Below, piece after piece: positions 3,128 through 14,818 of a stretch of DNA of 15,564 bases. The stretch comes from Anaerolineae bacterium. Its GTDB lineage: Bacteria; Chloroflexota; Anaerolineae; S140-20. The notes beneath the pieces were generated by a model. That model was given only the letters and a program-made list of their open reading frames with translations, searched no databases and was not told the origin of the DNA. The stretch's first letter is position 1. Each line of letters starts with the position of its first letter. The stretch lies in assembly GCA_027021705.1 (NCBI GenBank), contig JALUTT010000031.1:1-15564 (forward strand), given 5' to 3'. The position numbers and the translations under genes are program-made.

Positions 3128-4192
3128 ATGAGCATTGAATTCTTCTTCCGCCTGGTTGGGATGGTCGTGATGGCCATTCTGGGATGGCAGGTCGGCATCA
3201 CGCTCTCAGGGGGAAGTACAGAAGCGGAGATCCGATACGTGCTGGTGCTCTCCCTGGCCGGTGCCGCCCTGGGCCTGCTCCTCACGCCTTGGGTGACGAC
3301 CCGTCCCTTCCGGGCGATCCGTCAGCAACTGCGCCAACTGCCGGCGCAGCAACTGGTCGCCGCAACCCTCGGCCTGATCGTCGGTCTGATCATCGCCGCT
3401 CTGCTCGCCTTCCCCATCTCCCTGCTCCCCCCTCCCTTTGGTCAGGTGCTCCCCTTCCTAGGCGCACTGTGCTTTGCCTACCTGGGCAGCGCGGTGATGG
3501 TGATGCGCCAGAAGGACATCTTCGCCGTCTTCAGCGGGCGCTGGTCGGCGCGGGAGCGCGGGCTCGGCAGCCCTTCAGACAGCCGCCCCATCCTGCTGGA
3601 TACCAGCGTGATCATAGATGGGCGCATCGCCGACATCGCTCAGACCGGCTTTATCTCCGGGGAATTGCTGGTTCCCCGCTTCGTGCTCAACGAGCTCCAG
3701 TACATCGCCGACTCTCCTGACCGGCTGCGGCGCAACCGAGGCCGACGCGGCATGGAAGTCCTGCGTATCCTGCGGGAGGATGCCCCTATCCCAGTCCGCA
3801 TCACCGATATGGACATCGAAGGCACCCGCCAAGTGGACGACAAACTCATCCTATTGGCCAAGCGGCTCCACTGCCCCATTATGACCAACGACTACAACTT
3901 GAACCGGGTGGCGGAACTGCAAGGGGTGCAAGTGATGAACATCAATGAGCTGGCTAATGCCGTGCGAGCCATCTATCTCCCCGGTGAGACCCTGGAGATC
4001 GAGGTCATCCAGGAAGGCAAGGAGATCGGGCAGGGGGTCGGCTATCTGGACGATGGGACGATGGTGGTGGTGGAGAGCGGTCGGGACTACATCGGCAAAA
4101 CCATCCCGGTGATCGTCACCAAAGTTCTGCAAACGGCCGCCGGGCGGATGATCTTCGCCCGGCCTCACCTGGACAGCAGCCCCCAAAGATGA
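3128..4192 (+). CDS. yacL: YacL-family membrane protein with PIN and TRAM domains
   Basis: Four N-terminal TM segments, LLDTSVIIDGRI PIN motif, RRNRGRRG, TNDYNLN, and TRAM motifs GQGVGYLDDGTMVVVE and VLQTAAGRMIFA. Start is either GTG 3125 or ATG 3128. Confidence 0.92.
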   Translation: MSIEFFFRLVGMVVMAILGWQVGITLSGGSTEAEIRYVLVLSLAGAALGLLLTPWVTTRPFRAIRQQLRQLPAQQLVAATLGLIVGLIIAALLAFPISLLPPPFGQVLPFLGALCFAYLGSAVMVMRQKDIFAVFSGRWSARERGLGSPSDSRPILLDTSVIIDGRIADIAQTGFISGELLVPRFVLNELQYIADSPDRLRRNRGRRGMEVLRILREDAPIPVRITDMDIEGTRQVDDKLILLAKRLHCPIMTNDYNLNRVAELQGVQVMNINELANAVRAIYLPGETLEIEVIQEGKEIGQGVGYLDDGTMVVVESGRDYIGKTIPVIVTKVLQTAAGRMIFARPHLDSSPQR

Positions 4193-4212
4193 GCTTTCGG
4201 GAGGAAGCCTCC

Positions 4213-5673
4213 ATGAGCCTGCAGGTCTACAACTACCTCACCCGGAAAAAGGAGCCCTTCGTCCCCCTGCACGAGGGAGAGGTGCGGATTTACGTCTGTG
4301 GCCCCACCGTCTACGACCACGCCCACCTGGGCCACGCCAAGACCTACATCTCCTTCGACGTGATCGTGCGCTACCTGCGCTTCAAGGGCTACCGGGTGAA
4401 GTACGTCCAGAACATCACCGATGTCGGTCACCTCCTGGAGACCGGTGAGGATCGCATCCTGAAGGGCGCCCGGCGGGAGCGGATGGACCCGATGGAGCTG
4501 GTGGAGATCTACACCCGTAGCTACTTCGAGGATATGGATGCGCTGGGCGTCGTGCGCCCCAACATCTCCCCCCGGGCCAGTTGCCACATCCCCGAGCAGA
4601 TCGAGATGATCCGCGTCCTGCTGGAGAAGGGATACGCCTACGAAGTGGACGGCAACGTCTACTTCTCTGTGGAGAAGTTCCCCGAGTACGGCAAGCTCTC
4701 AGGGCGAAAGGTCGAGGAACAGGAGCCGGGAGCCCGGGTGGCCGTGCGGGAGGAGAAACGCCATCCCGCTGACTTCGCCCTCTGGAAGCGGGCCGAGCCG
4801 GAGCACATCCTCCGCTGGCCCAGCCCCTGGGGATGGGGGTACCCGGGCTGGCACATCGAGTGCTCGGTGATGGCCACCAAGTACCTGGGGGAGACCTTTG
4901 ACATCCACGGCGGCGGCGTGGACAACATCTTCCCCCACAACGACTGCGAGATCGCCCAGGCCGAGGCGGCGACGGGCAAGCCCTTCGCCCGCTACTGGCT
5001 GTTGACCGGCTCGCTGACGGTCAACGGGGTGAAGATGAGCAAGAGCCTGGGTAACTTCCTGACCATCAAAGATGCCCTGAAGCTCTACAGCCCCTACACC
5101 CTTCGCTTCTTCATCCTCTCCAGCCACTACCGCAGCCCCGTTGACTTCAGCCGGGACGCGCTGGTGGCGGCGCGGCGGGGCGTGGAGCGGTTGCACAACA
5201 CGGTGCGCCTGCTGCGGACCCGCCTGGAAGCGACGATGCCCTCGGGGACGGCGGACCTCTCGTACATGACCGACTTAGATTCCCACCGGGAGCGCTTCCT
5301 GGAAGCGATGGACGATGACTTCAACACGGCAGGAGCCCTGGCCGCCCTCTTCGAGCTGAACAAGGAAGTCAACCAGCTCCTCAGTTCCGGCCAGCCCCTC
5401 AGCCGGGGCACCCTGGCCGCCATTGACCAACTCTACCGGGAGCTGGGGGGCAAAGTGTTGGGCATCATCCCCGACGATCTGGGACCCACCAGGGAGAAAC
5501 GGGGCTTGGAGAGCAACCTCATCCAACTGCTGGTGGACCTGCGCAACGAGTACCGCCAGGCGAAAGAGTGGGACAAGGCGGATATGATTCGGGACCGCCT
5601 TCTGGTGCTGGGCGTCGCCCTGGAGGACCGCCCGGACGGCACGACCTGGCGGTACGTGGAGGATGAAGACTGA
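4213..5673 (+). CDS. cysS: Cysteine--tRNA ligase
   Basis: [11 protein letters not shown] (HIGH-type), [25 protein letters not shown] and MDDDFNT motifs. GGAGG RBS precedes ATG 4213; the ORF track start is 4189. Confidence 0.97.
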
Positions 5674-5687
5674 GCCGTTCCGACAGG

Positions 5688-6437
5688 ATGGGTCTCCCCG
5701 GCTATGAGCACATCTATGGACGCCAGGCAGTACGGGAGGTGCTGCGGGCCGGCCGCCGTCGGGTCCACCGCCTCCTCCTCGCCCAGGGCGTTCGGGTCAA
5801 GGGTGGGGTGGAGGAGATCCTGAGGCTGGCCGAGCGGCAGGCGATCCCGGTGCAGCCCGTTCCCCGCCGAGAACTGGACCGGATCCACCCAGGACACCAG
5901 GGGGTTGCCCTTGAGGCAACCCCCTATCCCTATGTGGACCTGGATGCCATCCTGCGCCGGCCGGCGCAGCGCGGCGAGATGCCGTTGTTGCTGCTCCTGG
6001 ACTGTCTGCAAGACCCCCAGAACTTCGGCTCCCTGCTGCGCACGGCCGAGGCGACCGGCGTCCACGGCGTCATCATCCCCCAGCGGCACGCGGTGGGGGT
6101 GACACCGACCGTGGTCAACACGTCGTCCGGAGCCGTAGAGCACCTGCTGGTCACCCGCGTGGTCAACCTGGCCCGCACGATGGCTCGCCTCCGGGAGGCG
6201 GGGATCTGGCTGGCGGGGCTGGAGAACCTCCCCCAGGCCCACGACTACACCCAGGTGGACCTGACCGTCCCCCTGGGAGTAGTCGTGGGCAGCGAGGGGA
6301 AGGGGCTGCGGCGTCTGGTCCGGGAGCGGTGCGACCTCCTGCTCCGGCTCCCGATGCGAGGGCGCATCAACTCCCTGAACGCTGCCGTCGCCGGCTCCAT
6401 CGTGCTCTACGAGGTGCTCCGGCAGCGGGAGGGATGA
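5688..6437 (+). CDS. rlmB: 23S rRNA (guanosine-2251-2'-O)-methyltransferase, SpoU/TrmH family
   Basis: IYGRQAVRE, HQGV, LDCLQDPQNFGSLLRTA, GSEGKG and SLNAAVA motifs; conserved position after cysS. Confidence 0.93.
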   Translation: MGLPGYEHIYGRQAVREVLRAGRRRVHRLLLAQGVRVKGGVEEILRLAERQAIPVQPVPRRELDRIHPGHQGVALEATPYPYVDLDAILRRPAQRGEMPLLLLLDCLQDPQNFGSLLRTAEATGVHGVIIPQRHAVGVTPTVVNTSSGAVEHLLVTRVVNLARTMARLREAGIWLAGLENLPQAHDYTQVDLTVPLGVVVGSEGKGLRRLVRERCDLLLRLPMRGRINSLNAAVAGSIVLYEVLRQREG

Positions 6438-6441
6438 TCCC

Positions 6442-9099
6442 TCACGCACGCTGCTCCGACGAGTCGTCCTTCTCCTTCTCTGCCTTCTCGGCCAGGACTG
6501 CCCTCAGCTCTTCCGACAGAGGGGTATCCCCGATGGCCGACCGGCCGGTGATCCGCTCGTACCAGAGGGGATGGTGCAGCCGGGCCCAGCCCTTGGTCAC
6601 CCAGCCGGCGAAGATCGCCTGCAGGGTGCCCGGGTTCGCCCCCGTGCTCAGGTAGATGTGGGAAAGCACGCCCGAGATGCCGAAGAAGGCCGCCAGATCG
6701 TGGACGACGATGGCGACGAAGACCAGGTCGTTGGGCAGGGACTTCCTGAAGAAGAGGATGATCCCGGTGACCAGGAGGGTGAGGCCGCCGATGACGACGG
6801 TCCAGAAGTAGACCTTCTGTCCCGCATTGAAGCGGTCGGCCGGCACCGGTTCGTGCCCGCCCAGGTAGCCGCCCAGCTTGCGCAGCCACTCTCGGTCGCT
6901 GGGGACCAGCACCGCGTCGCGCCACCAGAGGACGAACATCAGGAGCACGCCTGCGCCGAAGACGAAGCCCAGCCAGCCGTGCCAGACGCGGGGGGTGACG
7001 GTGCTGTTGAAGATCAACTGCAACCACCGCCCGCCGTTAAAGGCGAAGGCCAAGCCCGTGAGCGCCAGGAAGAGGAAAGTTATCAGGACCACCAGGTGGA
7101 CTAAGCGCTCGAACCAGTTGAACCGCTCGATCCGCTCGTAGTCATCCCCTCGGGGGTCCATAGGCCGGCCGCCGAAGTCGTGGGGTCCGTAGCGGGTGAA
7201 GTGGAGCGTGGTGGCGAAGAAGACGAGCATAATCAGCCCGCCGATCCAGGGGCGCACCAACGGACAGTGGACGGCGCAGAGGGTGTAGCTGAAGTCGCTC
7301 ACCCCGATGGTCCAGCGCACCGGCTCGACGACCGGATTGCCCGTCTCGTCGAAGGGGTCCACGATGTGGGTCCGCTGGAAGAACTCCCCCTGGAAACCGT
7401 GGCAGTCCACGCACCCACCGGCCCCCAGCGCCTCCTCGGCCGGCGCGACGTTGTGGCTGATGGAGAAGGCTTCGCTGACACACTCCGGCGCAGGATGGCC
7501 GGTCAGGGTGCCGTCGGGACCGAACTCCCACAGCTTGTCCCCCTTGACGAAGACGGGATGCACCTGGGTGAAGCGGGCGTTGCCGGCCAGCGTCTGCTCC
7601 AGGGCCTGCAGCCCGGCTGTGATCTCCTCGGGCCGGTTCACCTCGGGGAAGCCATCCCCGTTGTCATCGGTGACCTGGTCCTTGTACTGCTCCCAGGCTG
7701 CCGCCAGCTCCCGCGCGAAGAGGGGGTAGACGACTCCATCGGCATCCCGGTTCCCCCACCAGATGCCGAAGATGGGGTTGACGGGGTGGATCTGGCCATC
7801 GAAGAACTCGTAGGCCGGATACCAATCGGCCGGCTGTCCCCACTTCTCCGCCTCGCCGATGATGTCCCAGTGGAGGCTGCCGTAGGTGGAATCAAAGTAC
7901 TCCCCCGCCGCCCGGTGCTTCTGGGGGATGTGGCAGGTCTCGCAGGCGATGGTCTCCAGATGCGAGGGTGGGATGTTCAAGTGCTGCGGGATGGAAGCCC
8001 CCAGATAGCCGGTGGTGTGGCAATCCTCGCAGGTGCGCATCGTGTTGTCCAGGTCGTCGCGCACCGTCTCGATGGTGGTATGCCCCTTGGCGAAGTTGTG
8101 GGCCAGGTCGCCCGGGTGACAGTCCACACAGTGGATGCCTTGCTGGTTGTGGACATCGGGGTTGATGGGATCGTCCCAACTGAAGCCCCGCTTCTTCATA
8201 TCGGCCGGCCCATGGCACTGCATACAGTTGGCGTCCGCAGGGCGGTAGTTGATGGACAGCACGACTTTGCCGTCCTCGTTGAAGAGACGCCGATTGTAAA
8301 CCACCGTAGGGGTCTCCCCGGTGAGCTGTTTGGTCTCAGGGTTAAAGATGCGCCCCTTGACCACGCCCAGCCGGCCGGCCGCCGTCGCAGCCCACTTCAG
8401 GTTCCAGCTCTTGAGCTGACCGATCCGTCCCTTCCAGTCGTACTCGGGCGAATGGCAGATCAGGCAGTCGGCCTCCAGCACGCCGCTCTTGTCCCAGTGG
8501 CTGCCGATGTAGTCCCCGTCCAAGGAGTCCCGCAGCGCCGGATTGGCGGCCAGCGTCACGTCATAACGCTTGCCCTCGCGGTCGTGCTCCAAGGGACCGC
8601 CACCCGGGTGGCAGCCGGCGCAGGGAGGCAAGTTGGGCGGTGCTGTGGTCACCCACTGCCAGACGGTGATGTCTATCTCGTCGGGGCTCTCGTTGTGCTT
8701 TTTCGCCAACTGGCGAAAGGAGGGCGGTCAGTACTTCCCGAACATGCCGTCGGAGAGTACCCACGGCCGTTCGGGGTCAAAGTGATCGTTGATGACATCC
8801 GCGCCCTGCTGGAAGTGGTATCCCAGCGTAATGGTGGCGTAGTCGTGGCATCCCTCGGCCCCGCAGGTTTGGCGGGGGCTGTAGGGCTGATCCGCGTTCT
8901 CGCCGGTTAGCGGATTGATCACCTCACCGGTCTCGGTGCGCAGGAAGAAGGGGGGATGCTGCTTGGGGACGACCTGGGCCGGAGGGGCTTCTACCGGTCC
9001 GGCCAACACTCCCGTGCTCCAGAGGAGTCCGGCAGCCAGCACCAGGGCCATCGCTGCTAGGACTCCCCCTATCCCTCTGAGGAGATCGTGGACTCTCAT
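6442..9099 (-). CDS. Putative selenoprotein: OTR-like octaheme cytochrome c fused to an FdnI/formate dehydrogenase gamma-type cytochrome b (~885 aa, in-frame TGA at 8728-8730)
   Basis: ORFs 8728-9099 and 6442-8709 share a frame and are joined by TGA-CCG-CCC-TCC-TTT-CGC-CAG-TTG. There is a strong RBS (AAGGAGG) and a signal peptide at 9099. Heme motifs are one CX4CH plus seven CXXCH. The C-terminus has FdnI motifs (ERFNWFERLVH, VWHGWLG, RFNAGQKVYFW, HIYL, WARLHHPLWY). Confidence 0.8.
8701..8718 (-). promoter_or_regulatory. Candidate bacterial SECIS hairpin
   Basis: mRNA reads UGA-CCGCCCUCC-UUUCGCC-AGUU-GGCGAAA: a perfect 7-bp stem with a G-containing apical loop 16 nt after the UGA. Confidence 0.65.
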
Positions 9100-9159
9100 A
9101 ACTCTCCCTCCTTAATCGAATCAAGGAGCTCAAAAGTAGCGAGGGGATACACATCTATC

Positions 9160-9202
9160 ATCATATGCGTTTGGAGGGAGAGAGCTAGTGATAAACGTCA
9201 CA
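9160..9202 (-). promoter_or_regulatory. Activator-type promoter for the cytochrome gene, with a CRP/FNR-like box and a -10 element
   Basis: On the minus strand TGTGA-cgttta-TCACT (9202-9187) and TATGAT (9165-9160). The box centre falls at -41.5 from the inferred TSS near 9153, and the -35 is weak (CTAGCT). Confidence 0.55.
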
Positions 9203-9265
9203 TTCAGGAAACGCGCTTTGTCATTCTCAACATTTATAAGATGAATGGTTGCTCATTCCTCCTGC

Positions 9266-10621
9266 TTATACCCCGAGTTCGTTGCGCCATCGGCCCAGCA
9301 GGATGCAGGCATTCTGGCCGCCGAAGCCGAAGGAGTTGGAGAGGGTCACGTCTACCCGGGCTTCACGGGCTCGATTGGGCACATAGTCCAGATCGCACTG
9401 GGGATCCGGCGTCTCGTAGTTGGCCGTGGGATGGATGCGCTGGTCGCGCAAGGTCAGCACGCAGACCACCGCCTCGAAGGCGCCGGCCGCGCCCAGCATG
9501 TGACCGGTCATAGACTTGGTGGCGCTGACGGGGATGTCGTAGGCCCGCTCGCCCAGGGCCATCTTGATCGCCTCGGTCTCCACGATGTCGCCCAGAGGCG
9601 TGGAGGTGGCGTGGGCGTTGATGTAGTCCACATCTTCGGGGCCCAGCCCGGCCGAGGCCAGGGCCCGCTGCATAGCCAGGGCTTGCCAGCGGGCGGTGGG
9701 TGCGGTGATGTGGTTGGCGTCCGACGTCCCCGCCCATCCCAGCACCTCGGCATAGATGCGGGCGCCTCGGGCCAGGGCGTGGTCCAGCCGTTCCAGGATG
9801 AGCACGGCTGCCCCCTCTCCCGGCACCATCCCGTCCCGATCCGCGTCGAAGGGACGACAGGCCCGCTCTGGCGCGTCGTTGCGCTTGGAGAGCACGCCCG
9901 TGGCGGTATAGCTGGCGATGGCGATCTCGCTGTCGCAGGCCTCAGCACCACCGGCCAGGACCACGTCCACGTCTCCTCGCAAGATCGCCTCAGCCGCCTC
10001 ACCCAGGGCCTGGGTGCCGGAGGCGCAGGCGGTGACGATGGTGGCGTTGTAGCCGGTCAGGCCGAAGGTGCGGGCCACATGGTAGGCAGCGATGTTGGGC
10101 CAGACGGCGGTGAAGGTGATGGGCGAGATACGCTGGCCGCCCAACAAGCGCCGCATAGCCCGCTCCGTCTCGATGATCCCGCCACCGATGGCCGTCCCCA
10201 AGATCACCCCCACCCGGGTGCGATCCTCATCCTCCAACCTCAGCCCGGCATCCTGCACCGCCATCGTTGCGGCGGCGACGGCGAACTGGCTGGACTCCGT
10301 CATCCGGCGGGCTTCCTTGCGGCTGATGTAGGCCAAGGGGTCGAAACCTCGGATCTCCCCGACGACTCGGTTAGGGTAGCGCTCGATGTTGGGGATGTGC
10401 TCGGCCAAGCGGGTGCCGGAGCGCCCGGCCAGCAGCGCCTGCCAGCTCTCCTCGGCCGTCAACCCCACGGGGGAGATGGCTCCCACCCCGGTGATGACGA
10501 CCCGGCGAGAGGGCGGGCGTTCCCAGGATGGAGCCGGCCGGCCCAGGGGGCGGCCGCAAGCCAAACAGTAGCGGGCTTCGTCGGGGTTCGCGGTACGACA
10601 GGTGGCGCAGCGTTGGGTCAT
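9266..10621 (-). CDS. fabF: Beta-ketoacyl-ACP synthase II with an N-terminal zinc-ribbon extension
   Basis: RRVVITGVGAISPVG, catalytic TACASG, RPFDADRDG, NAHATST, KSMTGHMLGAAG and SNSFGFGGQNA motifs; N-terminus CATC-x10-CLACG. Confidence 0.9.
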   Translation of the reverse strand: MTQRCATCRTANPDEARYCLACGRPLGRPAPSWERPPSRRVVITGVGAISPVGLTAEESWQALLAGRSGTRLAEHIPNIERYPNRVVGEIRGFDPLAYISRKEARRMTESSQFAVAAATMAVQDAGLRLEDEDRTRVGVILGTAIGGGIIETERAMRRLLGGQRISPITFTAVWPNIAAYHVARTFGLTGYNATIVTACASGTQALGEAAEAILRGDVDVVLAGGAEACDSEIAIASYTATGVLSKRNDAPERACRPFDADRDGMVPGEGAAVLILERLDHALARGARIYAEVLGWAGTSDANHITAPTARWQALAMQRALASAGLGPEDVDYINAHATSTPLGDIVETEAIKMALGERAYDIPVSATKSMTGHMLGAAGAFEAVVCVLTLRDQRIHPTANYETPDPQCDLDYVPNRAREARVDVTLSNSFGFGGQNACILLGRWRNELGV

Positions 10622-10880: not shown

Positions 10881-10910
10881 TTGACAGCGAGGTGGGTCGT
10901 GACGTATAAT
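10881..10910 (+). promoter_or_regulatory. Consensus sigma70 promoter for the GntR-carbamoyltransferase-carbamate kinase operon
   Basis: TTGACA (10881-10886), 18-nt spacer, TATAAT (10905-10910). Confidence 0.85.
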
Positions 10911-10915
10911 GGACC

Positions 10916-10931
10916 TGTCTGACATCCGACA
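10916..10931. promoter_or_regulatory. Candidate GntR operator over the transcription start
   Basis: TGTCTGACATCCGACA contains an inverted repeat (TGTC..GACA) and a direct repeat (TCTGACA/TCCGACA), directly downstream of the -10 element. Confidence 0.55.
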
Positions 10932-10947
10932 AGTTGGGAGCGCCAGC

Positions 10948-11688
10948 GTGAAACCGATAGCCTCTTTGAGGCGGGACCCCCGTCCGCTCTACCTTCGGAT
11001 TGAAGAAGCCCTGAACGACCTCCTGGCTCAGATGGAGGCCGGCGAACAACTCCCCTCTGAGCCCAAGCTGGCCCGCCAACTGGGTGTCTCCCGTTCCACA
11101 TTGCGGGAGGCCCTGCGCTCGTTTGAAGAACGCGGGCTGGTGATCCGCAAGCAGGGCATCGGCACCTTTGTCAACACCCCGCGTCCCCTCATCCCCAGTG
11201 GCCTGGAGACGCTGGAGAGCGTGGATGTGCTGGCCCGCCGTATGGGACTGCAATGCGAGACGGAGGACCTGGTCATCGAACGGGTTCCCGCCAGCACCGA
11301 GGCGGCCCGGGCGCTGGGCTTGTCTCCCGGCAGCAGCCTGATCCAGGTCGCCCGCCTCAAGACGACGGACGGGGTGCCGGTGGCCTACATAGTGGACAAC
11401 GTGCCGACGACGCTGGTTAGCCTGGAGGCCCTGCAGGCCGACTTCGAGGGCTCGGTGCTGGACTACTTGCGCACCCACGCCACACCGCCTCCTGCCTACG
11501 CCCGGGCCAACATCATCCCCACGCGGGCCGGCCCCCTGAGCACCGTCCTGCGGGTGCGCCCTGATGCCGTCCTCCTGCTCCTGGAAGAGGTGCTTTACGG
11601 CCAGGACCACACCCCGATGGACTATTCCCGGAACTACTTCGTCCCTTCCTACTTCCGCTTCCACGTAGTGCGGCGGGTCGTGGCCTGA
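10948..11688 (+). CDS. GntR-family (HutC subfamily, UTRA domain) transcriptional regulator
   Basis: PLYLRI, LPSEPKLARQLGVSRSTLREAL and GIGTFV winged-HTH motifs, plus a UTRA-type C-terminus. GTG 10948 with a GGGAG RBS is preferred because ATG 10909 overlaps the -10 box. Confidence 0.92.
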   Translation: MKPIASLRRDPRPLYLRIEEALNDLLAQMEAGEQLPSEPKLARQLGVSRSTLREALRSFEERGLVIRKQGIGTFVNTPRPLIPSGLETLESVDVLARRMGLQCETEDLVIERVPASTEAARALGLSPGSSLIQVARLKTTDGVPVAYIVDNVPTTLVSLEALQADFEGSVLDYLRTHATPPPAYARANIIPTRAGPLSTVLRVRPDAVLLLLEEVLYGQDHTPMDYSRNYFVPSYFRFHVVRRVVA

Positions 11689-11748
11689 TCCAGACCGGGC
11701 TCGACACCGCCCAGCCTACACCAAAAACCGTTGAGAGGAGTGAGAACA

Positions 11749-12792
11749 ATGCGCACGGACACCTTCCGAGGAAAGGACTTTATCACCCTGCTGGACTGGA
11801 CCAAAGAGGAGATCGAGACCATCCTGGACGTAGCCCTGGACTTGAAGCGACGCCGGGCGATGGGCGAGCTTCACGATCACCTCTTGCGCGGCAAGACCCT
11901 CTTTATGATCTTCTACAACCAGTCGCTGCGCACCCGCAACTCCTTCGAGGCCGGCATGCACCAGTTGGGTGGTCACGCCCACTTCTTGGACCCGAGCAAG
12001 ATCTACACGCCGGCCCTCCCCGGCAAGGAGATCGCCTACACCACCGAGCGCGTCTCTGACGTGGCCCGCGTCCTCTCCCGCATGGGGGAGGCCATCGCCA
12101 TCCGCTGCTACGGCGACCCGGTGGACTGGGTCTACGGCGGGGCCAACGAGATCATCCGCAACTTCGCCTACTGGGCCGACATCCCCGTCCTCAACATGGA
12201 GGACGACAAGTACCACCCCTTCCAGGCCCTGGCCGACATCCTCACCGTCTACGAGAAGTTCGGCACCTTCAAGGGGGTGCGCTTCGTGATGAGCTGGGCC
12301 TACTCCCCCAGCGTCCACAAGCCCCGCGCCGTGCCCCAGAGCGCCATCATCGCCGCCACGATGATGGGGATGGACGTCACGCTGGCCCACCCCAAGGGGA
12401 TGGAACTGGACGACGAGGTGTTGGCCGCCTGCCGCAAGTACGCCGAGCAGACCGGCGGCTCCTTTGACATCAGCTACTCCTTCGAGGAGGCGATCAAGGG
12501 GGCCCACGTCGTCTACCCCAAAGCCTGGACGGCGGTGCCGATGTTCAAGCCCCCCGTCGGCGAGGACAGCCCGGAGAAGGCTCAGGAGATCTTCGACGCC
12601 AACAAGGACTGGATTATGGACGCCGATCGGATGGCCCTGGCCGACCCCAACGCCATCTACATGCACTGCCTGCCGGCCGACCGAGGCTTCGAGGTCACCG
12701 ACGACGTCATTGACGGCCCCCAGTCGGTCGTCTTCGACGAGGCGGAGAACCGGCTGCACGTGCAGAAGGCAGTGATGAGCCTGGTGATGTGA
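11749..12792 (+). CDS. Carbamoyltransferase 1 (YgeW/AOTCase-like knotted type, substrate uncertain)
   Basis: SLRTR, HPFQALAD, SWAYSPSVHKP loop, YPKAW, MHCLPADRG and EAENRLH motifs; the OTCase DxxxSMG motif is absent. GAGGAG RBS precedes ATG 11749. Confidence 0.88.
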   Translation: MRTDTFRGKDFITLLDWTKEEIETILDVALDLKRRRAMGELHDHLLRGKTLFMIFYNQSLRTRNSFEAGMHQLGGHAHFLDPSKIYTPALPGKEIAYTTERVSDVARVLSRMGEAIAIRCYGDPVDWVYGGANEIIRNFAYWADIPVLNMEDDKYHPFQALADILTVYEKFGTFKGVRFVMSWAYSPSVHKPRAVPQSAIIAATMMGMDVTLAHPKGMELDDEVLAACRKYAEQTGGSFDISYSFEEAIKGAHVVYPKAWTAVPMFKPPVGEDSPEKAQEIFDANKDWIMDADRMALADPNAIYMHCLPADRGFEVTDDVIDGPQSVVFDEAENRLHVQKAVMSLVM

Positions 12793-12810
12793 GTACCAAA
12801 GGAGCCCGCT

Positions 12811-13848
12811 ATGGACCTCTACGGACGCGATCTCATCTGCACCCAGGATTGGTCCTTCGAGGAGCTGATGGCCGCCCTCGACCTGGCGGCCAAGATGAAG
12901 CGGGATCGCTTTAACCCCCGCTGGACCCGCATTCTGGAGCACCGGACCTTCATTATGTTCTTCTACAACCCCTCGGTGCGGACCCGCCTCTCCTTCGAGG
13001 CGGCGATGACCGAGCTGGGGGGGCACGCCCAGTTCATGACGCCCTCGGCCGGCCGCTTCAAGACCCAGAAGCAGGCCGGCGAGACCATCGAGGATGCGGC
13101 CAAGGTGATGGCCCGCTACGCCGCCGGCATCGGCATCCGCATCCTGGAGGACAAGGTGCCCTACTACGGCGCCGGCGACGAGATGCTGCGGGAGTACGCC
13201 TACTGGGCCGACGTTCCCATCTTCAATATGGCCGACGACAAGTTCCACCCTATGCAAGGGCTGGCCGACGTGATGGGCTGGGCCGAGTGGTACGGTGAGG
13301 GGCCGGGCCGGCCCGACTACAGCGCCTTGGAGGGCAAGAAGTTTGTCCTCACCTGGGCCTCGGGAGCCCTCGCCCGCTCCTGGTGCTCCGTCCAGGAGGC
13401 CCTGCTCGTTGCCTCCCGCTTTGGCATGCACGTCACCCTAGCCTACCCCGAGGGCTACGACCTGGACCCTGAGGTGATCGCCCAAGTTCGGCAGAACTGT
13501 CAGGAGCGGGGCACCGACTTCGAGGTCGTCCACGATCCCGAAGCCGGCTACGAGGGGGCCCACATCGTCTACGCCCGCAACTGGATGAGCCCCAACGCCT
13601 ATCGGGATGGCGTCTTCCACAAGCAGGAGGAGATCGAGAAGGCGCTCCAGTACCCGGAGTGGATCCTCACCGCCGAGAAGATGGCCCGCACCGACAACGC
13701 CATCTTCACCCATCCGATGCCGGTGGATCGGGGACACGAGGTGACCGACGAGGTGGCCAGCGGGCCTCGCTCCGCCATCTACGACATCGCCGAGAATCGG
13801 CTCCACGTCCAGAAAGCGGTCATGGCCCTCACGATGGGGAACCTGTAG
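12811..13848 (+). CDS. Carbamoyltransferase 2 (divergent paralogue, substrate uncertain)
   Basis: SVRTR, HPMQGLAD, YARNW, THPMPVDRG (in place of HCLP) and AENRLH motifs; it has its own AAGGAG RBS. Confidence 0.88.
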   Translation: MDLYGRDLICTQDWSFEELMAALDLAAKMKRDRFNPRWTRILEHRTFIMFFYNPSVRTRLSFEAAMTELGGHAQFMTPSAGRFKTQKQAGETIEDAAKVMARYAAGIGIRILEDKVPYYGAGDEMLREYAYWADVPIFNMADDKFHPMQGLADVMGWAEWYGEGPGRPDYSALEGKKFVLTWASGALARSWCSVQEALLVASRFGMHVTLAYPEGYDLDPEVIAQVRQNCQERGTDFEVVHDPEAGYEGAHIVYARNWMSPNAYRDGVFHKQEEIEKALQYPEWILTAEKMARTDNAIFTHPMPVDRGHEVTDEVASGPRSAIYDIAENRLHVQKAVMALTMGNL

Positions 13849-13873
13849 CACGGGGCGAGGAGGAGGAACGGGA

Positions 13874-14818
13874 ATGAGTCGAGGCGTTGCTATCGTCGCC
13901 GTCGGTGGGAACTCGCTGATCAGGGACAAAGCCCATCAGACCGTACCGGACCAGTACGAGGCGGTGAAGGAGACGGTGAAGCACATCGCCGGGATGATCC
14001 AGCAGGGCTGGGACGTGATCATCACCCACGGCAACGGCCCCCAGGTGGGCTTCATCCTGCGCCGCTCCGAGTTGGCAGCCCACGAACTGCACACGGTGCC
14101 CCTGGACTCCTGCGGGGCCGACACCCAGGGGGCCATCGGCTACATGTTCCAGAAGGCCCTCTACAACGAGTTCAAGCGGCGGGGGATGAAGAAGCAGGCC
14201 GCCACCGTCGTCACTCAGGTCTTGGTGGATCGGGATGACCCCGCCTTCCAGAACCCGACCAAGCCCATCGGCTCCTTTATGGACGAGCGGACGGCCAAGG
14301 AGCGGGCGGCCCAGGAGGGATGGGTGGTCAAGGAAGACGCCGGCCGGGGATGGCGGCGCGTCGTGCCCTCCCCCATCCCCCGACGGGTGATCGAGCAGGA
14401 GGCGATCAAGACGCTGATCAAGGCCGGCTTCACCGTCATCGCCGTAGGTGGAGGCGGCATCCCCGTCGTCGAGGACGAAGAGGGCAACCTGGTGGGCGTC
14501 GAGGCGGTCATTGACAAGGACTACGCCAGCAGCCTCCTGGCCCGCAGCATCGGTGTGGACCTCTTCCTCATCTCCACAGCGGTGGAGAAGGTGGCCATCA
14601 ACTTCGGGAAGCCCGACCAGCAGTGGCTGGACCGGATGACGTTGGAGGAGGCCAAGCGGTACTACGCCGAGGGCCACTTCGCCCCCGGCAGCATGGGGCC
14701 GAAGATCAAGGCGATCATTGACTACTTGGAGGCCGGTGGCAAGCGGGCCATCATCACCAATCCGGAGAACATCGAGCGGGCCCTGGCCGGCGAGACGGGA
14801 ACCCTGATCACCCCGTAG
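13874..14818 (+). CDS. arcC: Carbamate kinase
   Basis: VGGNSL, THGNGPQVG, PTKPIG, GWRRVVPSP, GGGGIPV, EAVIDKD and GSMGPK motifs. Confidence 0.96.
   Translation: MSRGVAIVAVGGNSLIRDKAHQTVPDQYEAVKETVKHIAGMIQQGWDVIITHGNGPQVGFILRRSELAAHELHTVPLDSCGADTQGAIGYMFQKALYNEFKRRGMKKQAATVVTQVLVDRDDPAFQNPTKPIGSFMDERTAKERAAQEGWVVKEDAGRGWRRVVPSPIPRRVIEQEAIKTLIKAGFTVIAVGGGGIPVVEDEEGNLVGVEAVIDKDYASSLLARSIGVDLFLISTAVEKVAINFGKPDQQWLDRMTLEEAKRYYAEGHFAPGSMGPKIKAIIDYLEAGGKRAIITNPENIERALAGETGTLITP

Follow-up and report, generated by a model that had tools for sequence, protein, structure and literature searches.

The stretch of DNA analysed here, referred to as the window, comprises 15,564 nucleotides (nt) of contig JALUTT010000031.1 from an Anaerolineae bacterium (Chloroflexota; assembly GCA_027021705.1). 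On its minus strand, at 6442..9099, lies a frame of 885 codons that starts with ATG at 9099, is crossed by an in-frame TGA at codon 124 and ends with a second TGA at 6444..6442. When the internal TGA is taken as a stop, two open reading frames (ORFs) of 123 and 755 amino acids (aa) result. The first-pass annotation had proposed that the shorter ORF runs in frame past the TGA into the longer one, and this was confirmed: ...SDGMFGKY is followed by the TGA (8730..8728), then by PPSFRQLAKKH and the rest of the frame up to the terminal TGA, which gives a read-through product of 885 aa. Comparison with relatives indicates that the locus is almost certainly one intact gene for a membrane-anchored octaheme cytochrome, the internal "stop" of which would encode selenocysteine (Sec). 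That the TGA is decoded as Sec, that the hairpin behind it serves as a Sec insertion sequence (SECIS) and that a single protein is produced is, taken jointly, very likely.

The beginning of the gene has the features of an exported protein. A Shine-Dalgarno-like AAGGAGGGAGAG is seen directly in the sequence upstream of the ATG (9102..9113, minus strand, as are all features of the gene given below). Residues ~1-34 (8998..9099) form a predicted signal peptide with a hydrophobic core at residues 9-27 in a hydropathy scan and a probable cleavage site, ..VLA/GP, placed by eye. The first heme motif is CGAEGCH (C79 to H85; 8845..8865), in which C79, C84 and H85 were invariant in alignments of 63 and 119 sequences of the family. 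A ribosome-binding site, a signal peptide and a heme motif had previously been assigned to this part of the gene. A ribosome-binding-site-like element and a signal-like segment were indeed present, as was the heme motif, but the latter has the spacing CX4CH and not CXXCH. The same CX4CH was found in orthologues from genus g86, which belongs to another family of the class; plain CXXCH was found in L067, a metagenome-assembled genome (MAG) of Chloroflexota, and in most other relatives.

Codon 124, the predicted Sec codon (8728..8730), and a SECIS-like hairpin (8701..8718) that encodes F-R-Q-L-A-K lie between the first and second heme motifs. The K133-K134 pair is encoded at 8698..8703. K134 was invariant in both alignments, and the pair aligned with the "GK" of octaheme tetrathionate reductase (OTR), the lysine of which is Lys56. 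Residues ~35-610 (7270..8997) constitute the putative periplasmic octaheme c domain, with heme motifs at 79, 160, 212, 292, 324, 357, 386 and 563. A linker transmembrane helix was placed at residues 614-632 (7204..7260) by hydropathy scan. Residues 656-850 (6550..7134) matched FdnI-like diheme cytochrome b (TIGR01583, 157.9 bits against a cut-off of 115.85; PF01292, 66 bits; 1kqf_C, E 7.7e-27), and the hydropathy scan gave four transmembrane helices in this domain at residues 669-811. H668, H707, H800 and H814 were invariant in the family alignment, and, by analogy with FdnI, they are probably the heme b ligands. In a protein database search, full-length and uninterrupted homologues of 830-895 aa were found, which supports the single-gene reading. 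A consensus scan of 6300-9300 found no sigma-70-like promoter, and a terminator scan of the same region gave a single terminator-like site, located inside the gene and within chance expectation.

The conservation of the TGA was studied at the DNA level. Six-frame translations of 401 genomes from this class were searched, and three orthologues with 81-83% identity were found in genus g86. Each had one in-frame TGA, at the same column and in the context GMFGKF-TGA-PPSFRQLAKKH, within an open frame of 900-905 aa. A scan with one genome per species added TGA-type genes at 40-87% identity from Chloroflexota (L066 and the MAG L067) and from Desulfobacterota MAGs (L070 and L074-L077), together with Cys-type genes with TGT at this position (L068, L069, L071 and L073). 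From a metagenome scan with the family alignment, 80 loci were kept out of 552 confirmed relatives. Together with the window and 13 loci from genomes, these gave a set of 94 DNA loci; L037 (same genome as L066), L040, L072, L078 and L079 were left out. Column 124 was located in 91 of the 94 loci and was TGA in 25, Cys in 60, Tyr in 2, Gly in 2, Asp in 1 and Leu in 1. For the other three, tblastn placed Ser, Gln and Met there.

The in-frame UGA is thus shared by orthologues whose coding sequence is conserved both before and after it, and Cys homologues exist at the Sec column both in the DNA set (60/91) and among protein hits (17/120), as is expected of a selenoprotein family. Carriers of the TGA-type column were found in Chloroflexota, in Desulfobacterota and in metagenomes. 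In a sample of 301 Desulfobacterota genomes, 38 had a match at E <= 1e-30, and 22 of the 39 matches contained one TGA. Around the window's own genome the family is rare: in a phylum sample of 401 genomes, no match at E <= 1e-30 was obtained besides that genome itself.

The first-pass annotation had anticipated that standard pipelines would split such a gene, and the public databases do list the N-terminal and C-terminal pieces separately. A search among proteins of 67-216 aa gave 149 short proteins matching the N-terminal piece. All 120 listed fragments stop at the residue preceding column 124, with the ending ...GK[F/M/H/Y/L/W] or GRW. The N-terminal piece is named "hypothetical protein" or "Cytochrome C", and the large piece "formate dehydrogenase subunit gamma". 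Among the hosts of the N-terminal fragments are Ammonifex degensii KC4, whose split gene is the one behind WP_015739405.1, as well as A. thiophilus and Desulfothermobacter acidiphilus. In a FastTree phylogeny of 119 rows with the column masked, TGA-type genes occurred in both major clades, often as early branches, and at least five changes at the column were needed; because this tree is unrooted, it does not separate gain of Sec from loss.

The TGA was also examined in independent assemblies. Logan contigs from four sequencing runs covered 8701-8730 and were identical to the window there; they differed from it at nine positions elsewhere, between 8344 and 8596. One run may be the window's own source, one is from a second study and two are from a third. 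The TGA is thus present in independent contigs of two further studies and is therefore not an assembly error; the first-pass annotation had asked for its confirmation in raw reads. In the window, TGA is the ordinary stop of 7 of the 10 genes, the end of the read-through gene itself included. Therefore, the internal TGA needs a local signal and not a changed genetic code, and genome-wide reassignment of TGA was rejected.

A candidate for this signal lies directly behind the UGA. The hairpin UUUCGCC-AGUU-GGCGAAA has a 7-bp stem (arms 8718..8712 and 8707..8701) and the loop AGUU (8711..8708); the stem starts 9 nt past the UGA and the loop 16 nt past it, the latter being the distance that had been read from the sequence before. 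By rules of the bSECISearch type, the apical loop of a bacterial SECIS lies 16-37 nt behind the UGA and has a G near its start. The AGUU loop, at 16 nt here and at 22 nt in clade B, has this distance and this G.

The hairpin was then compared between TGA-type and Cys-type genes. A 24-nt segment around the R-Q-L-A codons was folded, and a hairpin with dG <= -4 kcal/mol was obtained in 24 of 25 TGA-type genes versus 5 of 60 Cys-type genes (Mann-Whitney p 1.4e-12, uncorrected for relatedness; the hairpin and codon comparisons use related sequences, so p-values overstate independence). Close relatives keep both the TGA and the hairpin, the lack of which in them the first-pass annotation had named as a refutation. 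Codon choice differed in the same sense among genes encoding the identical RQLA peptide. In TGA-type genes, Arg was CGC (18) or CGU (1), followed by CAG UUG GCG in 19/19, whereas all four codons varied in Cys-type genes, and Leu was UUG in only 2/32. Among 11 clade-A TGA-type genes, the codon entropy of amino-acid-invariant degenerate columns averaged 1.07 bits over 216 columns. It fell to 0.51 for residues 125-134 and to 0 for RQLA, and 2 of 207 sliding windows were as low. In addition, 81.8% of the cells of the fixed hairpin structure paired, versus 47-67% when the partner was slid. In L070 and L121, the 7-bp stem is kept by coupled amino acid changes (CGCC/GGCG to CCGC/GCGG, with the loop AGUUG), and the hairpin of L077 holds a G-U pair.

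For decoding of UGA as Sec, the genome should also contain selA, selB, selC and selD. In the source genome, selB (303.7 + 44.3 bits), selA (566 bits), selD (375.9 bits) and a tRNA-Sec with the anticodon UCA were all found. Its selD carries an in-frame TGA of its own; the hairpin behind it is rich in GC, and its GUU loop matches the GUU-containing loop of the cytochrome hairpin. GGCGUGA-like heptanucleotide repeats sit just upstream of the selD start in this genome. Across the family, searches for selA gave a hit for 9 of 10 TGA-type genomes and for 2 of 4 Cys-type genomes; it was not found in the two Bacteroidota Cys-type MAGs. The earlier proposal of a Sec-containing protein of ~885 aa is thus strongly supported by the conserved TGA/Cys column, the linked hairpin, the Sec machinery and the independent contigs.

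Several results weigh against this interpretation. The expectation that homologues have either TGA or Cys at the column held for most of the DNA set and not for the best protein hits: among 120 of these, column 124 was Tyr in 88, Cys in 17, Arg in 4, Ser in 4, Ala in 1 and Gly in 1, and 5 were truncated. A distant clade that is common in the same class (32-39% identity) carries Asn or Asp there, and a homologue in genome G176 with 47% identity has a non-Cys residue. Since the column is varied in many relatives, numerous lineages can evidently do without this residue or replace it, and the case for an essential catalytic Sec is weaker for that. One TGA-type MAG (G407, 2.0 Mb) gave no selA match. 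The stability of the hairpin in a 66-nt context was unremarkable (z -0.63; 52 of 200 shuffles folded at least as well), and an Rfam search of 8500-8900 at E <= 10 gave chance-level matches only and no SECIS family. The hairpin alone is therefore within chance, and its significance comes only from the comparison with relatives. Covariation was modest, with changes on both sides in 2 of 8 pairs and a score reached by 4 of 500 shuffles; the test, made with one fixed structure, is weak because 3 sequences are in a register shifted by one base. Finally, L068 (Cys, TGT) and L087 (Gly, GGA, one base off TGA) retain the CGCC-AGUU-GGCG hairpin. Part of the hairpin signal thus reflects shared ancestry, and these two hairpins look like relics of a recent Sec replacement.

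The alternative that survives best, improbable as it is, holds that the UGA is read through without Sec, a near-cognate or suppressor tRNA inserting Trp, Cys or Arg and the hairpin acting as a general stimulator. The conserved frame on both sides of the UGA, the many residues tolerated at column 124 and the small, not exceptionally stable hairpin would all be compatible with this. It is opposed by the fact that Cys is the main alternative in the DNA set and by the distribution of selA, which turned up in 9 of 10 TGA-type genomes and was not found in the two Bacteroidota Cys-type MAGs. The distance and G-containing loop of the hairpin also fit the bacterial SECIS pattern, the GUU loop is shared with the selD hairpin, and TGA stops most genes of the window in the ordinary way.

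Less probable still is that the TGA is a true stop; a 123-aa exported monoheme protein would then be made from the locus, either together with a separate 755-aa protein or by itself. This is how gene callers and public databases divide the locus. As had been noted before, however, the downstream ORF has a TTG as its sole start (8709); this codon lies inside the hairpin loop with no purine-rich stretch ahead of it. The ORF lacks an ATG or GTG start, a ribosome-binding site and a signal peptide, yet it contains seven heme c motifs that need export. Moreover, the two pieces are always adjacent and in frame, the 830-895-aa homologues span the junction with conservation on both sides, and synonymous change is additionally constrained in the codons immediately 3' of the TGA. 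A pseudogene or a sequencing or assembly error, for which the state of the assembly (183 contigs, 94.9% complete) might speak, was rejected as extremely improbable, since the same TGA occurs in the contigs of two other studies, in 24 further loci and in 22/39 Desulfobacterota matches, and both halves are conserved as protein, with 81-87% identity to orthologues having the same TGA.

With Sec at codon 124 of a single protein as the preferred reading, the relation of the heme domain to known cytochromes was analysed. When the PDB sequences were searched, both with the protein and with the family profile, FdnI was the only clear match and NrfA a weak one (E 2e-4); 1SP3, the structure of the Shewanella oneidensis OTR, was not found by HMMER. 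A Cys-type homologue, P0032, fell into generic cytochrome clusters only in a protein atlas. Against the OTR model TIGR04315, the heme domain scored 39.9 bits, with a cut-off of 375, over residues 285-397 only. An alignment of 26 OTR-family genes above that cut-off, which maps to 1sp3_A at E 8e-176, was numbered on this chain, with "GK" as Lys56 and "NNF-C" as Cys64. Alignment of the two families by hhalign gave 99.0% probability (E 7e-18), with heme motifs 2-7 in one-to-one correspondence. When the N-terminal parts alone were aligned (88% probability), heme motif 1 was also matched, and QLAK133K134 stood opposite KLGK56 of OTR. This Lys56 is said, after work by Mowat and colleagues in 2004, to ligate the active heme 2. 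By the hhalign match and the TIGR04315 score, the family of the window's gene is a distant relative of the OTR family and not part of it.

The two families share the octaheme c-type cytochrome and a Sec/Cys position in the loop between heme motifs 1 and 2. Among OTR-family genes of Desulfobacterota (L160-L188), 30 matches exceeded the TIGR04315 cut-off and 11 had one in-frame TGA. In the 26 OTR-family genes examined, TGA was present in 10, every one at the "NN[F/Y]-U" column that corresponds to Cys64 of 1sp3_A. This corresponds to the Sec form of the OTR family listed as "GenBank annotated" in a 2026 catalogue of prokaryotic selenoproteins (PMC13188914). The positions of the two residues differ, which counts against a direct equivalence: in the 88% alignment, OTR Cys64 pairs with V150 and not with U124, and F120-U124 is a five-residue insertion relative to OTR. 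Sec124 thus lies in this insertion, ~10 residues ahead of the aligned Lys. The heme domain of the window's protein is also ~130 residues longer than OTR, and it is joined in one chain with a transmembrane helix and a cytochrome b of the FdnI type.

Other known systems resemble the window's protein in part. MccSep/ExtKL of Geobacter sulfurreducens (GSU2937-2936, NF040886) is likewise a periplasmic multiheme cytochrome c selenoprotein that annotation splits at an in-frame UGA with a SECIS-like hairpin. In both, Pro follows Sec and Cys-type relatives exist. The rhodanese and porin-like neighbours of clade-B relatives recall the ExtKL neighbours ExtI, a porin (PMC5877670), and ExtH, a rhodanese. 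According to PMC13510729, MccSep has 5 hemes in a soluble tetramer of ~49 kDa subunits, with Sec325 in a C-terminal Ig-like domain, and cannot reduce polysulfide without this Sec, which lies beside a His/Cys heme. Clade-B relatives of the window's gene with Cys in place of His48 recall this His/Cys heme. MccSep lacks a cytochrome b, unlike the window's protein, which has eight heme motifs and its Sec between motifs 1 and 2. Identity with MccSep/ExtKL was ruled out: no sequence similarity was found, and the heme count and the place of Sec differ. The ExtKL model (NF040886) was absent among the 12 NCBIfam hits at E <= 0.01, and no such chain appeared in the PDB sequence searches.

The closest architectural analogue is CbcL of G. 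sulfurreducens, a proposed quinol oxidase in which an N-terminal periplasmic multiheme c domain is joined to a C-terminal HydC/FdnI-like diheme cytochrome b; the likeness is one of architecture only. CbcL differs in having nine CX2CH motifs and six transmembrane helices, and has no Sec reported in the available part of its description (PMC6295460). The likeness to FdnI, the gamma subunit of Escherichia coli formate dehydrogenase-N (PDB 1KQF chain C), extends over the full length of residues 656-850. Unlike FdnI, this part of the window's protein is a domain fused to an octaheme cytochrome and not a subunit of a molybdoenzyme. No FdnG/FdnH-type genes were found in the window or in the 14 related loci scanned, the scan being confined to these regions and not extended to the whole genome. 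Since the domain is fused to an octaheme cytochrome and the window has no FdnG/H-like gene, the database name "formate dehydrogenase subunit gamma" is misleading.

These comparisons allow a mechanism to be proposed. In bacteria, SelB-GTP carrying Sec-tRNA(Sec) binds the apical loop of the hairpin and brings Sec to the UGA in the ribosomal A site. Here, SelB would insert Sec124 at the UGA under the guidance of the hairpin 9 nt downstream. A secretory (Sec-type) signal peptide would export the octaheme c domain, with Sec124 between heme motifs 1 and 2, and hemes would be attached across the whole N-terminal domain. The FdnI-like four-helix diheme cytochrome b would then exchange electrons between the quinone pool and an active site in the heme domain.

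A catalytic role of the heme domain is plausible by analogy, given ~8 kDa of protein per heme, the many Asp, Arg, Tyr and Lys residues invariant in the 63- and 119-sequence alignments, and the precedent of MccSep. This ratio of protein to heme puts the domain in the "peptide-replete" class, which is described as catalytic in PMC7096707. The loop that holds Sec124 and the invariant Lys134 is the one from which the active site at heme 2 is built in OTR, so that Sec may well be a catalytic nucleophile or a heme-proximal residue rather than a structural one, a proposal for which we see about even chances. The inferred function is that of a periplasmic reductase linked to quinol, with sulfur or selenium species as possible substrates. 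A more specific assignment, as a self-contained quinol:substrate oxidoreductase for periplasmic sulfur, selenium or a similar small inorganic substrate, would follow from such a catalytic role and is somewhat doubtful.

Residue 48 (8956-8958) is His in the window's protein ("KQHPPFFL"), whereas Cys stands there in all clade-B members and in some TGA-type genes of clade A. The pairs of column 124 and residue 48 were U/C in 16, U/H in 7, C/C in 60, C/H in 8 and Y/H in 13, and residue 48 could be a heme axial ligand that switches between His and Cys. These data can be extended to a reading that is, in our estimate, unlikely: the family might hold a second, independently evolved heme-plus-selenium catalytic centre, with Sec124 at the Lys-ligated active-site heme 2 of an OTR-like fold, residue 48 as its partner, and a quinol-to-substrate chain in one polypeptide. 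The change of residue 48 from His to Cys in relatives would then place a His/Cys heme next to the Sec, as in MccSep. On this same unlikely reading, the substrate would be a sulfur, selenium or arsenic-sulfur compound, and the gene would be a single-gene terminal reductase passed horizontally between phyla.

The first experimental demonstration of Sec in multiheme cytochromes was that of MccSep in 2026 (PMC13510729). Sec-containing multiheme cytochromes are thus already known as a kind; what is new here is a different Sec site and a fused quinone module. The family of the window's gene is distinct from MccSep and is apparently larger and widespread. The selenoprotein catalogue, in its available part, names only ExtKL and the OTR family among cytochromes, and its main text nowhere mentions "formate dehydrogenase gamma" (PMC13188914). 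No description of this family was found in the titles and abstracts of the openly available literature searched.

Because RefSeq and GenBank split the gene, it is missed in selenoproteome counts, in cytochrome inventories and in metabolic reconstructions, such as those of sulfur-cycling and vent communities. If the interpretation is true, a quinone-reactive cytochrome b fused to a Sec-bearing octaheme enzyme would be a very compact respiratory module. Cultured carriers exist (Ammonifex degensii, A. thiophilus, Desulfothermobacter acidiphilus and Desulfobacca acetoxidans), so Sec insertion and the substrate are directly examinable.

The genomic context of the family varied. The neighbours of the window's gene are housekeeping genes only (cysS, a SpoU-type methyltransferase and a ketoacyl synthase), and it has no conserved sulfur-related neighbour, which also tells against a role in sulfur metabolism. 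In nine loci of clade-B relatives, rhodanese genes adjoined in 3, porin-like genes in 4 and ars-like genes in 5. The cytochrome gene of L073, L075 and L132 has a rhodanese-domain gene as its immediate neighbour, and porin-like genes are present at L076, L077, L132 and L128. Genes for ArsR, a low-molecular-weight (LMW) phosphatase, an ArsP permease, an SBF/Acr3-like transporter, a methyltransferase, a radical SAM protein, TauE and a DsbD-like protein also recur in clade-B neighbourhoods. The clade-B loci with such neighbours were L073, L075, L132, L076, L077, L128, L121 and L139.

The relatedness of the cytochrome gene was opposite to that of cysS (4189-5673). The latter has 74-78% identity to three genomes of the same family and only 50% to genus g86. 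The cytochrome gene has 81-83% identity to its orthologues in g86, and searches of the three genomes of the same family did not find it. From this pattern, the cytochrome gene may have been acquired by horizontal transfer.

Two further regions of the window were noted. On the plus strand, 1104-2885 is a 593-aa ORF with a hydrophobic segment in its N-terminal part, a long stretch rich in Pro, Thr and Ser, and a hydrophobic C-terminal tail; it gave no Pfam hit at E <= 1e-5. Also on the plus strand, 10909-14818 contains a GntR/UTRA regulator, two tandem carbamoyltransferase paralogues and a carbamate-kinase-like gene, which together look like a catabolic carbamoyl-phosphate cluster.

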